Part shown: positions 1 through 28,027 of the stretch, piece after piece
How the letters are laid out: every line of letters starts with the position of its first letter
How positions within the stretch are numbered: position 1 is the first letter of the stretch
Source of the DNA: Escherichia coli
GTDB taxonomy: Bacteria; Pseudomonadota; Gammaproteobacteria; Enterobacterales; Enterobacteriaceae
Direction: 5' to 3' (one strand)
Assembly (NCBI RefSeq): GCF_003334385.1
Contig: NZ_QOWN01000001.1
DNA: 64,000 nt
Notes under the pieces: generated by a model
Told to the model about the DNA's origin: nothing
What the model saw: the letters and a program-made list of their open reading frames with translations, nothing else
Database searches by the model: none
Made by a program: the position numbers and the translations under genes

Positions 1-592
1 TACTTCAGCCAGGAACGATCAGAAAAAGAGACTATACAGGCTCTGAATCATCTGCGCAGGGTACTTCATGAAGTCAGCCCTTTTGCACAGGAGCCTGTGG
101 ACTGTGTGCTGTGGGTGAAAGCAGATGAGGTGGTGGCCAACGATTATAACCCCAATGTCATGGCGCCGGGTGAGAAGAAACTGCTGAAGCAGTCACTGGA
201 GAAAGATGGTTTCACCCAACCCGTGGTGGTGTCGGCGGAGAAGAACCCCTATCTGGTGGTGGATGGTTTTCATCGTCAGTTACTGGGCAGGGAAGCAGGT
301 ACAGGAAAACGCCTGAAAGGCTGGTTGCCAGTGGCCTGTATTAATCCGGAAAGAAAGGGACAGGCCACACGTATGGCGGCCACCATACGGCATAACCGGG
401 CCAGGGGTAAACACCAGATAACCTCAATGTCTGATATTGTCAGGGACCTGTCACGCCTGGGCTGGACGGATGAACGCATTGGTACAGAGCCTGGGGATGG
501 ACCAGGATGAAGTGCTGAGGCTGAAACAGATTAGCGGACTGACGGAGTTGTTTCAGGAAGAGGATTTCAGCCCGGCATGGACGGTTCGCTGA
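1..592 (+). pseudogene. ParB-like nuclease domain protein, 5'-partial at window edge, apparent +1 frameshift near 490
   Basis: Frame 1 is open from position 1 to the stop at 508-510 (listed ORF 97..510 begins at a GTG). The same protein continues without stops in frame 2 from 491 to the stop at 590-592 (LGMDQDEVLRLKQISGLTELFQEEDFSPAWTVR). ParB/Srx-like motif VVDGFHR. Confidence 0.5.
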
Positions 593-631
593 GACCGTCA
601 TATATGAGTATTATTTCAGTGAGTTGATGTT

Positions 632-940
632 TTGAGCAGGAAAAATAGTACCCCGGAAGTCGTGGAAGACATGGTTGCACAGAAGCTGGAGGCGGCGGGT
701 TGCTGGCGCAGAGCTTCTGCCCGCTGGCTTTTTGTTATGGGAAATGTTGAATGTACAGAAGCACAACGGGAGTGGTTGTTGTTGCGCCGGAATTATTGTC
801 TGGCGCAGATATCGTCCCCGCCGCTACCTGAAAAGCTGGATATCAGCGAAGTGGCGAAAGCTGCAGATGCCACGCTGAGGCGAATGGGGATTGCCAGCCC
901 GTCCGGGGAGATATTCAGAAAAGGTACACCGGTCTGTTGA
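632..940 (+). CDS. PerC/Pch-family transcriptional activator-like protein
   Basis: Translation contains LEAAGCWRRASARWLFVM and RRNYCLAQ, matching the remembered PerC/PchA signature. True start may be the internal Met at 674. Confidence 0.6.
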   Translation: MSRKNSTPEVVEDMVAQKLEAAGCWRRASARWLFVMGNVECTEAQREWLLLRRNYCLAQISSPPLPEKLDISEVAKAADATLRRMGIASPSGEIFRKGTPVC

Positions 941-960
941 TATTCAGGTAACAGGTATTA

Positions 961-1605
961 ATGATGAAGAAAGATATGGCGGACAGTGTGTCAATGACAT
1001 GGCAACTTTTATGCGATGAACATGGTTTTACCCGGGAGCACTACAATCAGCTGAAGAAGTTCAGCCCGGAGACATTACGTGAAATTATTGCTGAAATAGC
1101 CAGCTGTCATCCATCAACCAGTGTATTGCTCAGGAATAAGTGGCTGACACCGCCGGAGGATATTCTGGAGCAGATTACCCGTGAATACGAACGAAGAATA
1201 CAAAACTGTCCATCGTTCAGGAGCGAGAAGGAAGCGGAATCCTGGTTAAATGAACTGTCTTTTGCTGTGATTGCTCCGCTATACCGTGTTGTCCCCGAAC
1301 AAACAGAACAGGTTGAGTCCTTTGTTCTGCAGCTTATTGCCGAGCAGGAGCGGGTTTGGGAGCTTATTTTAACCAATGATGGTTATTCATGGCATTGCGC
1401 ACTTTATGATATATTATTTCATCTGGTTTTACGAAATATGGAAGACCAGCCTGAACATCAGAGACAGCGAATAACAAAAATACTTAATGAGTCCGATACA
1501 AGACGGGTGGCAGAAGAGATTAAATTCCGGATTCAATATCTTCAGGATGAAGAACAAAAGAGAGTTTTAAGTGATCTGGTAAATGTCCTGATTTCAAAAA
1601 GATAA
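961..1605 (+). CDS. hypothetical protein (214 aa), island cargo of unknown function
   Basis: Uninterrupted 214-codon ORF directly downstream of the PerC-like gene on the same strand. No family recognised. Confidence 0.5.
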   Translation: MMKKDMADSVSMTWQLLCDEHGFTREHYNQLKKFSPETLREIIAEIASCHPSTSVLLRNKWLTPPEDILEQITREYERRIQNCPSFRSEKEAESWLNELSFAVIAPLYRVVPEQTEQVESFVLQLIAEQERVWELILTNDGYSWHCALYDILFHLVLRNMEDQPEHQRQRITKILNESDTRRVAEEIKFRIQYLQDEEQKRVLSDLVNVLISKR

Positions 1606-25088: not shown

Positions 25089-26132
25089 CTACTGATGCTG
25101 GATGCTTGAATGTTTTATCCCTGCTGCGGAAAAGGGCAATATCCAGGGCCAGATATATTCACCGTTCATATTTCTGCATTTCTGTACAATTTCCTCAGAA
25201 AGTGTCTTGTCAATTCTTTTCCACAGGTGCTCCTGCTGTCTTAAAATACTTTCGCATATTTCGAAATCATCTTCCTGAATCAGCATTTCGGCGCATTTAA
25301 TGATTTCTGATCGTTCATGCAGCACGGAGGAATGGTTATAGAGCCAGTTTACAAACAGCAATGCTTCCGAATATTGTCCCCATAATGGTGAGTATGTTGC
25401 ATAGTAATCTTCTGCCGTATCCAGAGAGCCGGAGAAGTCATGCCACACAGCAAGTGGAAATGGATGCAGATTTCCGCACAGCATTTCTGCGATGTAAGTG
25501 TTTGTGGCAAAGCCATGGCGAAAAGCTGTGGCGGCCTTAACATGTTCCCCGTTCAGAAAATGCAGGAGACCGAGTTCATACCAGTAAGGTGAAAATTCAT
25601 CAGCATGCTCTTTCAGTACACTGAAGGCTCGCTCATGATCGCCGGTGCGTAACAGCTCTGAACCCAACAACCAGCGAGCCCCCTGATTATCTTCAGGATT
25701 GTATGCCAGTATTTTATCAGTGAGCATAACCGCATCCTGATGGCGCTGTAAGTGCACATTTGCGAGAATTGCTGCATAAAGCGCGCGCAGATAAGGCCGG
25801 TTTTCGGGATGCATCCAGATTATTTCACCACAGAAACTTTCCGGGATGATACGATTACCTGCCGCCAGTCCTTTAAGAGCGGCGTTCAGTGCCTTACGCG
25901 GGGCATTCTGTTCCAGAAATGCATATGCCAGATGAGCGTGTATATCAATAAAGTCCGGCTCCCGTTGAGCAAGGCGTCGGAGTTTGTTGATGTAACTCGT
26001 CTCGCTGATTTCATCAGCGTCGTATGCATCAAGCACTTCTTCAAACTCCCCCAGCAATGGGCCAAACCAGGTATCCGGAAATACGAAATAACCCTTGTTA
26101 TCGTGCACTTCAAAGCATAATCTATCGTTCAT
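25089..26132 (-). CDS. hypothetical protein (347 aa), island cargo adjacent to the integrase
   Basis: Uninterrupted 347-codon ORF. No family recognised; helical/TPR-like composition. Confidence 0.5.
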   Translation of the reverse strand: MNDRLCFEVHDNKGYFVFPDTWFGPLLGEFEEVLDAYDADEISETSYINKLRRLAQREPDFIDIHAHLAYAFLEQNAPRKALNAALKGLAAGNRIIPESFCGEIIWMHPENRPYLRALYAAILANVHLQRHQDAVMLTDKILAYNPEDNQGARWLLGSELLRTGDHERAFSVLKEHADEFSPYWYELGLLHFLNGEHVKAATAFRHGFATNTYIAEMLCGNLHPFPLAVWHDFSGSLDTAEDYYATYSPLWGQYSEALLFVNWLYNHSSVLHERSEIIKCAEMLIQEDDFEICESILRQQEHLWKRIDKTLSEEIVQKCRNMNGEYIWPWILPFSAAGIKHSSIQHQ

Positions 26133-26543
26133 TTTCTGAGCCTGTAAAACATGTGGTGATATAGTCTGAGAGCATAAAAGTTGAGATTCTGTGTATCAAG
26201 TCCTGTCTTGGCACCGAATGAATATTGCTTACGAAGCCCCTTCATGCTTTCCTTGAGAACAATAATTTTATCTTTATGTGAATCTCATTTTTTATAATGA
26301 TGTCAGATGATTGAAATGCTAAATTATATCTGAATCAACTTTTCCTTTGCTAAAGGTATCGAAATAACTACAAGGCTGTATTTTGTAATTGCCAATTTAA
26401 AAATGTCAATTTGTTTTTAATTATGTTTTTGTAATAAGTTTGAAGACGCAAAAAAATAATATAATAACAAAAATCCTCCAGCCTTGTAGGCCAGAGGATA
26501 AAATACTTAATTGAGGAAAACATCAGGGAAAAGTATTTCTGAC

Positions 26544-27728
26544 TTAACTTTCCCGGCTGGAGAGTGAATCAATGTAATCAGCGTACCATTGCATCATTTC
26601 ACGGCGGCCATCGAGATACAGGGCATGATTATAGGTACCCCTGATGGAATTTTTATCCACATGAGCTAACTGCATTTCAATCCAGGCGGAGTTAAAGCCT
26701 TGTTCATGCAGAATTGTACTCATGGTGTGTCTGAAACCGTGCCCTGTGAGTCTTCCCTTATATCCAAGTAATTCAATTACTTGATTAATGCTTTCCTTAC
26801 TAATTGGTTTGCGGGGATCATTTCTACCGATAAAGACTAGGGGATGATGTTTTGAGATTGGTTCAAGCTGCTTAAATAGCATAATAACCTGCTCAGAGAG
26901 CGGCACAATATGAGGTCGCTTCATCTTCATTACTTCTGCCGGGATCTCCCACAATTTTGTCTCAAAATCGATATCTTCCCAGCGTGCAAAACGCAGTTCT
27001 TGTGTTCGTACGCCGGTTAACATAATGATCTGAGTAGCTGTCTTAGTGATTATACTTCCGGTATAACCCGCCAGATCGTTGAGGAAGTGGGGAAGTTCAT
27101 TAGCAGTAAGAAAGGGAAAATGTACTTTTTTCGGTGTAGCTAAAGCACTGGCAAGATCGGGGGCTGGGTTATAGTCTGCCCGGCCAGTAACAATTGCATA
27201 GCGGAACACCTCACCACAGCGCTGGCGGACCTTGCGCATTTTCTCCAGAGCTCCACGTTTTTCCATTTTACGCAGTGCTTCCAGTAACTCCATTGGTTTG
27301 ATTTCGGCAATAGGGCGCTTGCCAATGTAGGGAAAAATGTCTTTTTCAAAGGTATCAATGATTTCATCACGATAGCGTAATGACCACCGATCGGCTTTTG
27401 ACTGGTGCCATTCGCGAGCAATAGCCTCGAACGTATTTTTCAGACTTATTTGCTGCGCGATTTTTTCTTCCTTTTTTGCCTCCCCTGGATCGCCTCCAGC
27501 AGCGAGGAGTTTCCTGGCTTCACTGCGTTTCTCGCGAGCATCGGCTAGCGTTACATCGGGGTATACGCCAATAGAAAGCATCTTTTCTTTACCAGCAAAG
27601 CGGTACTTCATGCGCCAGTATTTAGAACCATTAGTGTTAATCAGTAGATACATACCGCCGCCATCAGCAAGCTTATAGGGTTTGTCTTTGGGTTTTGCGG
27701 TTTTCACTTTGATATCGGTTAATGTCAT
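26544..27728 (-). CDS. int: P4-type tyrosine integrase (phage integrase family), selC-associated
   Basis: 394-aa ORF with P4-like N-terminus (KPYKLADGGGMYLLINTNGSKYWRMKYRFAGKEKMLSIG) and C-terminal catalytic region (HGFRHTMSTIL...LAH). Lies about 300 bp from the tRNA-Sec 3' end in the same orientation. Confidence 0.9.
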   Translation of the reverse strand: MTLTDIKVKTAKPKDKPYKLADGGGMYLLINTNGSKYWRMKYRFAGKEKMLSIGVYPDVTLADAREKRSEARKLLAAGGDPGEAKKEEKIAQQISLKNTFEAIAREWHQSKADRWSLRYRDEIIDTFEKDIFPYIGKRPIAEIKPMELLEALRKMEKRGALEKMRKVRQRCGEVFRYAIVTGRADYNPAPDLASALATPKKVHFPFLTANELPHFLNDLAGYTGSIITKTATQIIMLTGVRTQELRFARWEDIDFETKLWEIPAEVMKMKRPHIVPLSEQVIMLFKQLEPISKHHPLVFIGRNDPRKPISKESINQVIELLGYKGRLTGHGFRHTMSTILHEQGFNSAWIEMQLAHVDKNSIRGTYNHALYLDGRREMMQWYADYIDSLSSRES

Positions 27729-28027
27729 GACATCCTCCGGCTTTTGATGAATTCATGTTCCTGAGGGGGATTTCTGCCAGTAACTAACCTGATACCCCCA
27801 ATACACCCCTTGTATAACAAAGATGTTGTTAAAAGCCGTTGTTATGTATCACATTTTTCCTATTATGGGGGTGCTTGTATTTCAATAGGAAATAACACCC
27901 CCTAAAGTACCCCCAAAAGAAACTTGATACGGGGTGAAGTAGGTTGACCTCAGGATACAAATAAATACTGATATACAAGGGATTAGAAGAGATTTATTGA
28001 CATTGGGAGAGTTCAGAAGAGGTAAAC

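Follow-up and report, generated by a model that had tools for sequence, protein, structure and literature searches.

The selC-proximal part of a probable papGII pathogenicity island in a K-12-like Escherichia coli chromosome

The window analysed here, a stretch of 64,000 nucleotides from the Escherichia coli contig NZ_QOWN01000001.1 (assembly GCF_003334385.1), is divided by the gene for tRNA-Sec (selC) into a 28-kb segment that is absent from MG1655 and a backbone very close to that of K-12. The segment, 1..28027, very probably represents the selC-proximal 28 kb of an integrase-borne papGII pathogenicity island (PAI) of the extraintestinal pathogenic E. coli (ExPEC) type, with a total size of about 45–50 kb. 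An island inserted at selC had been proposed in an earlier description made from the sequence alone (hereafter the sequence-only reading). That reading holds, with one refinement: this block of cargo genes is not peculiar to selC, as it also occurs at pheV and pheU. The island is of an already described kind and involves no new mechanism or gene family. Only two aspects are mildly unusual: its host resembles K-12, and this cargo is rarely found at selC.

Results

The boundary at selC

The gene for tRNA-Sec, with anticodon UCA, is the single tRNA gene detected in the window by ARAGORN, and the call is backed by Rfam family RF01852 (83.8 bits). Megablast comparison with the MG1655 segment 3796000..3845000 gave one collinear match, which spans window positions 28013..64000 at 99.961% identity; the backbone proper (28028..64000, 35,973 bp) differs from MG1655 by just seven substitutions and two single-base insertions. 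Base by base, the identity with K-12 is perfect up to the CCA of selC (28028) and is lost immediately beyond; the insertion point is accordingly the 3' CCA of the tRNA gene. Beyond selC, K-12 continues with yicT-setC-yicL, the flank there being AAATGCCTCTCCTGACG, followed by yicT-setC. FORC_031, which has the same backbone as the window, holds another island at selC. The K-12 yicT region was considered as a possible relic of the island and was ruled out, since neither blastn nor tblastx revealed any similarity between it and the island or four of its relatives.

The two sides of selC also differ in composition. With 28028..55500 as the backbone reference, the waa genes being left out, the guanine-plus-cytosine (GC) content is 46.5% in 1..28027 versus 52.4% in the backbone, GC at third codon positions (GC3) of the genes is 47.7% versus 58.1%, and six rare codons account for 5.2% versus 1.9% of the codons. 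The GC contents of 1-kb bins from island and backbone are likewise distinct (Mann-Whitney p = 3e-6). The sequence-only reading had set non-core content below selC against a collinear K-12 backbone from selC onward, and both halves of this picture were borne out: every item that it listed (pap operon, pgt module, IS2-like element, integrative-element remnants and pseudogenes) is present, the segment is not contiguous with selC in K-12, and its composition is clearly not that of the core.

The position of the boundary is resolved most sharply by two reference genomes that exchange roles at the tRNA gene. UID2309220036, which carries the same island in another backbone, shows no mismatch to the window in 27000..28253 and 26 in the 1.25 kb that follow. 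FORC_031, in which a K-12-like backbone carries another island on the same integration platform, shows 64 mismatches in 27000..28027, the last of them at 28027, then none in 28028..29500, and remains essentially 100% identical to position 40000. This swap of identity at selC indicates that the element, attached to the chromosome at the tRNA gene, moves separately from it, and the swap shows the island boundary with great clarity.

Immediately past the CCA of selC, positions 28023..28027 read GTTTA in both the window and UID2309220036, versus AAATG in K-12. IAI39, which has the same integrase, departs from the window at four of these five positions, the same four as K-12. The existence of two versions may mean that the crossover point varies or that the site was converted.

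The complete arrangement papG-tia-ept-TPR-int-selC is contiguous in just 4 of 5426 complete genomes, and a further 49 (53 in all) share the window from 22030 to selC, with other cargo beyond. Among complete RefSeq genomes none is 100% identical, the best reaching 99.1–99.3%. Identical sequence was found in public read archives: a contig of ERR1948963, together with four further samples, covers 13236..34285 at 100% identity and spans selC into yicJ-yicI-yicH, and a contig of SRR10357324 is 100% identical over 13236..26336. These contigs break in the IS2-like element.

The K-12-like backbone

The two single-base insertions relative to MG1655 are located at 48462 and 45657. The former falls in rph, which is annotated as truncated in MG1655, and the host is therefore apparently rph+. 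The host is extremely close to K-12 but, with rph seemingly restored, not a derivative of MG1655 or W3110.

A low-GC stretch at 55.5–64 kb (33–39% GC) was rejected as a second island. It is the K-12-type waa cluster for the lipopolysaccharide core, with only three substitutions relative to MG1655 in 55500..64000 and with a JUMPstart element at 56126..56164. The Rfam scan of the window returned nothing besides this element and tRNA-Sec.

In two backbones that are not of K-12 type, a sugar cluster (BglG, fructose phosphotransferase system and aldolase genes) directly follows yicI: in UID2309220036 (locus L001, 44410..49002) and in IAI39 (locus L005, 30391..37334), where it extends to yicH. Neither the window nor K-12 has this cluster.

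The far end and the direct repeats

The sequence-only reading had placed the distal boundary beyond the window and had expected a selC-derived direct repeat at that end. The first of these statements stands. A search of the window for a second selC 3' end (a 24-mer with 3 mismatches, a 15-mer with 2) returned selC only; the window therefore contains neither the far end nor an internal selC-type att site. The island of the closest relative, UID2309220036, measures about 49 kb, some 21 kb more than the portion in the window, and continues with ibrA, a gene for an OLD-type nuclease, insertion sequence (IS) elements, ireA and a CP4-44-like yee module. The expected repeat was recovered in relatives, the window itself holding only the copy in selC. 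At the end of the FORC_031 island (43.5 kb) stands a perfect 24-nt repeat, TTCGACTCCTGTGATCTTCCGCCA; the next 60 nt are identical to those that K-12 has downstream of selC, and setC comes after them. The island of UID2309220036 ends about 1 kb before yicL in TTCGACTCCTGTGAT----CGCCA, that is, the 24 nt of selC with a 4-nt deletion, followed by the K-12-type flank AAATGCCTCT. Relatives with this type of integrase thus have islands of 43–49 kb, and their far-end repeats identify the last 24 nt of selC as the att core of the integrase type.

The integration module

The features of the segment are collected in Table 1. The P4-like tyrosine integrase, which had been reported at 26544..27728, near selC and in the same orientation, was confirmed with exactly these coordinates and with intact domains; 299 bp separate it from the 3' end of selC. 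It comprises an Arm-DNA-bind_3 domain (PF13356, 6e-30), a Phage_int_M domain (PF22022, 8e-36) and a Phage_integrase domain (PF00589, 1e-27), and the best PDB matches of the N-terminal and central domains are those of CP4-like and CPS-53 integrases. Candidate active-site motifs of a tyrosine recombinase were picked out by eye in the translation (GVRTQEL, KMKRPH, HGFRHT, LAHVD and RGTYNH). The int DNA is 100% identical to the copy in UID2309220036, and int together with its spacer was detected in 1517 of the 5426 complete genomes at a coverage of at least 80%. The three copies of the CTTGTAT(A/T) motif in the spacer lie within 27807..27981, two of them direct and one inverted. By their sequence they could be arm-type integrase sites, or else chance matches.

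The gene for a tetratricopeptide repeat (TPR) protein adjoins int in every selC island compared. At pheU, a diverged copy (83–92% DNA identity; locus L007, 35101..36144) adjoins a different, Phe-specific integrase. The TPR gene may belong to the integration module. The protein itself had no match in PADLOC or PHROGs, and when it was searched together with the hypothetical open reading frames (ORFs) against PADLOC, PHROGs and NCBIfam, just weak TPR matches and a SngC-like fragment were obtained.

The next gene, ept, encodes a phosphoethanolamine transferase and is a pseudogene. Its stop codon lies in a divergent patch (approximately 23750..24550), the flanks of which are 100% identical to the references. 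No donor of the patch was found among the alleles tried (two of the selC type and those of pheV, pheU and FORC_031), each of which is 90–95% identical. Tia, an invasin/adhesin, is encoded next to ept, and its DNA is 100% identical to the PGAP-annotated tia of IAI39 and ATCC 11775. A relic of a second P4-like integrase (22030..22092) separates the pap cargo from the conserved tia-ept-TPR-int block.

The cargo

The eleven ORFs of the pap operon match the Pfam families PapB, Fimbrial, Usher, PapD, PapJ and PapG. The papG gene is of class II: from codon 19 onward (window 21000..21999) it is 99.6–100% identical to the PGAP-annotated papG-II of ATCC 11775. P fimbriae with PapGII at the tip bind kidney glycolipids of the Gal-alpha-1,4-Gal type, and a Dam/Lrp switch makes their expression phase-variable. 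The papI-papB region of the window contains two GATC sites, at 13284 and 13386, and their spacing of 102 bp is, we assume, that of the canonical switch.

The second major cargo element is the pgt module, whose products PgtA, PgtB and PgtP exceed the curated NCBIfam cut-offs. PgtP, together with PgtABC, imports phosphoglycerates. The pgtA gene is intact in the window and frameshifted in UID2309220036, which lacks the C at window position 3184. Directly after pgtP lies an ORF (8840..9217, 125 aa, 33% GC) that is kept in all relatives and has no family match.

Table 1. Features of the segment 1..28027 and of selC. Island annotation was transferred from the 99% identical island of UID2309220036 and combined with family searches.
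Feature	Position	Strand	Remarks
ibrB-like ParB-domain pseudogene	1..510	+	Left window edge, inside the island
perC, PerC-family regulator	671..940	+	
Hypothetical ORFs	961..1605, 1670..1993	+	
Transposase/helicase fragments	2018..2377	-	
pgt phosphoglycerate transport module	2586..8809		Four intact genes; PgtA, PgtB and PgtP in NCBIfam
pgtA	2586..3842	-	
pgtB	3823..5832	-	
pgtC	5829..7046	-	
pgtP	7445..8809	+	
Degenerate IS2-like element (IS3 family)	9208..10556	-	53-nt imperfect terminal inverted repeats; broken/truncated transposase
YagK/YfjJ-like ORF (inovirus Gp2 family)	10806..11372	+	Integrative-element relic
Hypothetical ORF	11631..12203	+	Integrative-element relic
AlpA-like helix-turn-helix protein, 77 aa	12272..12505	+	Intact; candidate excisionase/regulator
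pap operon, papIBAHCDJKEFG	12848..21955	+ (papI -)	Complete; all ORFs without internal stops
papI	12848..13081	-	
papB	13495..13809	+	
papA	14017..14583	+	
papH	14653..15240	+	
papC	15299..17809	+	
papD	17880..18614	+	
papJ	18651..19232	+	
papK	19239..19778	+	
papE	19787..20326	+	
papF	20371..20901	+	
papG, class II	20945..21955	+	
C-terminus of a second P4-like integrase	22030..22092	-	Relic; marks a breakpoint
tia, outer-membrane invasin/adhesin (beta-barrel)	22306..23061	+	Pfam match to outer-membrane protein beta-barrel
ept, phosphoethanolamine transferase pseudogene (sulfatase family)	23236..24738	+	W350* stop at 24283..24285
TPR-repeat protein, 347 aa	25089..26132	-	Faint TPR matches in Pfam
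int, P4-like tyrosine integrase, 394 aa	26544..27728	-	Intact; Pfam and PDB matches
selC-int spacer	27729..28027		Island-specific; three CTTGTAT(A/T) copies
selC, tRNA-Sec	28028..28122	-	Last 24 nt (28028..28051, TTCGACTCCTGTGATCTTCCGCCA) are the attL core of the island

Mosaic structure and occurrence of the cargo at other tRNA genes

In ATCC 11775, the cargo in 1..24727 is located at pheV, where a 420-aa integrase and an AAA-domain gene precede it, and the junction with this pheV-type cargo falls inside ept, at 24727. The cargo also occurs at pheU in a strain of sequence type 69 (ST69), behind the diverged TPR gene and a 421-aa integrase. The identity to the pheV and pheU copies is at least 99.8% over the first 10.5 kb, and up to 13 kb for the pheU copy. 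Conversely, the selC platform carries other cargo in other strains, such as choline utilization in IAI39. In the selC island of FORC_031, Kiwa (kwaAB) and type I restriction-modification genes were observed (locus L006, 5328..6923 and 11829..18330); the int-TPR-ept-tia platform thus also carries phage-defence cargo.

The variable spots within the island are papA, papE and the 3' half of ept. The papA region (14000..14700) is 99.8% identical to that of the selC relative and 78–82% identical to the pheV and pheU copies. The papE region (20000..20500) has its highest identity, 96%, with the pheU copy and only 80% with the selC relative.

The breakpoint at 22030 lies inside the relic of the other integrase, which suggests an old platform in the 6-kb int-TPR-ept-tia unit, with other elements joined to it later.

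Origin of the island

The anatomy described above would be explained by site-specific integration. In this scheme, the P4-like integrase would have catalysed recombination between the last 24 nt of selC and an identical 24-bp core carried by the element. Integration would rebuild an intact tRNA gene at the int-proximal end, as is visible in the window, and would displace the previous selC 3' end and flank to the far end, where a direct repeat results, as is visible in the relatives. The island itself is a mosaic in which at least three pieces can be told apart: the selC platform int-TPR-ept-tia (22030..28027), conserved but with many different cargos in other strains; the pap/pgt/perC/ibr block (1..24727), which is common to pheV and pheU behind other integrases; and local allele replacements in papA, papE and the 3' half of ept. 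Platform and cargo block overlap in tia-ept, so that homologous exchange in this overlap can move cargo between integration modules.

Several points weigh against this account. The far end of the present copy, where its direct repeat would be expected, lies beyond the window, and its integration is read from the anatomy. The damaged far repeat in the closest relative suggests an island that has become fixed. The ancestry switch, located within 28028..28253, fits site-specific integration and also a homologous crossover inside selC. Finally, no transfer genes were detected in the window or in the remaining 21 kb of the UID2309220036 island, which leaves movement from cell to cell unaccounted for.

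Some of these points bear on another route to the same junction, in which incoming conjugative or transduced DNA displaced a diverged island of the FORC_031 type already resident at selC. The exchange would have been by homologous recombination, with one crossover in or beside selC and no fresh integrase-mediated integration. We consider this route unlikely. The K-12-like FORC_031 already possesses a tia-ept-TPR-int platform at selC, with 85–97% identity, transfer genes are missing from the island itself, and the ept patch and the allele mosaics of papA and papE show that homologous exchange has been active in the region. Nevertheless, the switch is confined to 226 bp, including the 95 bp of selC, and a homologous crossover would have to land there by chance. 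Moreover, there is no K-12-lineage island sequence on the island side and no donor backbone on the core side, as site-specific integration predicts.

The other alternatives are far less probable. That the 28 kb are ancestral chromosome, deleted in K-12 and its relatives, could be argued from the selC-yicL interval, which varies also without this island (setC is absent in UID2309220036); yet the atypical composition, the integrase adjoining the tRNA gene, the direct repeats that flank the island in relatives, the presence of the cargo at other tRNA genes, the occurrence of the arrangement in only four genomes and the 100% identity of the island between backbones that differ by 2% make this explanation exceedingly improbable. 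A P4-like satellite prophage, or another phage-derived element in place of a pathogenicity island, would account for the P4-like integrase, the AlpA-like and Gp2/YfjJ-like genes and the CP4-44-like yee module at the far end in relatives. However, primase, capsid-size, packaging and structural genes are all missing from the segment, its PHROG matches are confined to int, AlpA, the ParB-like relic, PerC and the Gp2-like ORF, and the bulk of it consists of fimbrial, transport and outer-membrane cargo, so we hold such an origin to be very improbable. We give hardly any credence, lastly, to a junction of ExPEC island and K-12-like backbone that arose as an assembly chimera or in a laboratory hybrid. 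The backbone is indeed unusually close to MG1655 (the differences being the substitutions and insertions given above), and K-12/K1 hybrids of the EV36 lineage carry the cargo block (97% coverage, 98.1% identity). Against this, contigs from independent public runs are 100% identical, that of ERR1948963 running across selC, the apparently rph+ host is not an MG1655 or W3110 derivative, and the EV36 copies differ, by their 98.1% identity and an ISEc12 insertion.

A more specific proposal is that an ExPEC papGII island was transferred recently into a commensal-type, K-12-like lineage and is still mobile, with cargo that hops between the selC, pheV and pheU modules through tia-ept(-TPR) exchange and with the ept patch as a scar of such an exchange. 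The intact state of int, the AlpA-like gene and attL speaks for it, as does the identity to copies in distant phylogroups (100% for the 3.5-kb integration module, at least 99.8% for 13 kb of cargo). We nonetheless judge it improbable.

Comparison with known islands

The segment displays several of the features by which Hacker and Kaper defined such islands, namely a position at a tRNA 3' end, an adjoining integrase, deviant composition, patchy distribution, and virulence genes together with mobility relics. Another feature of the set, flanking direct repeats that stem from the tRNA 3' end, was seen in the relatives FORC_031 and UID2309220036. With phage P4 and CP4-57 it shares the domain architecture of the integrase, the tRNA 3' end as target and an AlpA-type helix-turn-helix protein on the element. 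Unlike these elements, the window has no P4 genes for replication or for exploitation of a helper, and the AlpA-like gene lies 14 kb from int.

Several well-known islands occupy the same site, including LEE, SHI-2 and PAI I of strain 536 (PMC7545054). According to that review, SHI-2 has an integrase nearly identical with that of LEE. In genomes of O157:H7, where the review places LEE at selC, an integrase has 89% DNA identity over 84% of our probe. In contrast to the present island, the cargo of these three consists of type III secretion, aerobactin and haemolysin genes. The selC islands of IAI39 and FORC_031 are more closely comparable, since they share the selC-int-TPR-ept-tia platform (window 22030 to 28027). 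Another tia island of about 46 kb, with direct repeats and leoA, has been described at selC of enterotoxigenic E. coli H10407 (PMC7545054). In that strain, known here by the review's description only, leoA accompanies tia on the island, whereas no ORF for a LeoA-like large GTPase was found in 1..28027 or in the remaining island of UID2309220036. Although tia and the selC site are shared, the island of the window is therefore not classed as the tia-PAI of H10407.

In its cargo, the island corresponds to the intP4.3 type of genomic island at pheV (GI-pheV), which is characterized by tia-pap-pgt-ireA-ibr-yee (PMC11537424). In comparison with the GI-pheV of ATCC 11775, the window has tia, pap, pgt and ibr, its closest relative has ireA and the yee relic, and the identity is at least 99.8% over window 1..10500, in a match that reaches 24727. 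The ATCC 11775 island differs in its pheV site, in its 420-aa Phe-type integrase with the AAA-domain gene, in its lack of the TPR gene and the 394-aa integrase, and in the inactivation of ept, which is broken there by ISEc12 and in the window by a stop codon.

Overall, the island falls among the papGII PAIs surveyed by Biggel et al. (2020; PMC7686366); of all genomic features, these PAIs show the strongest association with invasive urinary-tract E. coli. Six integration sites were reported for these islands, which are found downstream of pheV, pheU, selC or leuX, among others. Each of the four sites besides pheV and pheU accounts for 0.5–4% of the papGII islands, such that selC is rare; each non-Phe site has its own integrase, and the islands are mosaic in content, with variable papA and papE (PMC7686366). 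The island of the window shares with them the complete pap operon with papG of class II, the flanking integrase, the position downstream of a tRNA gene and the IS and phage relics. It is unlike them in its K-12-like host, which does not belong to a classical ExPEC lineage, and nothing essential differs. As a papGII island in a near-K-12 chromosome, it illustrates the ability of such islands to enter commensal-type backgrounds.

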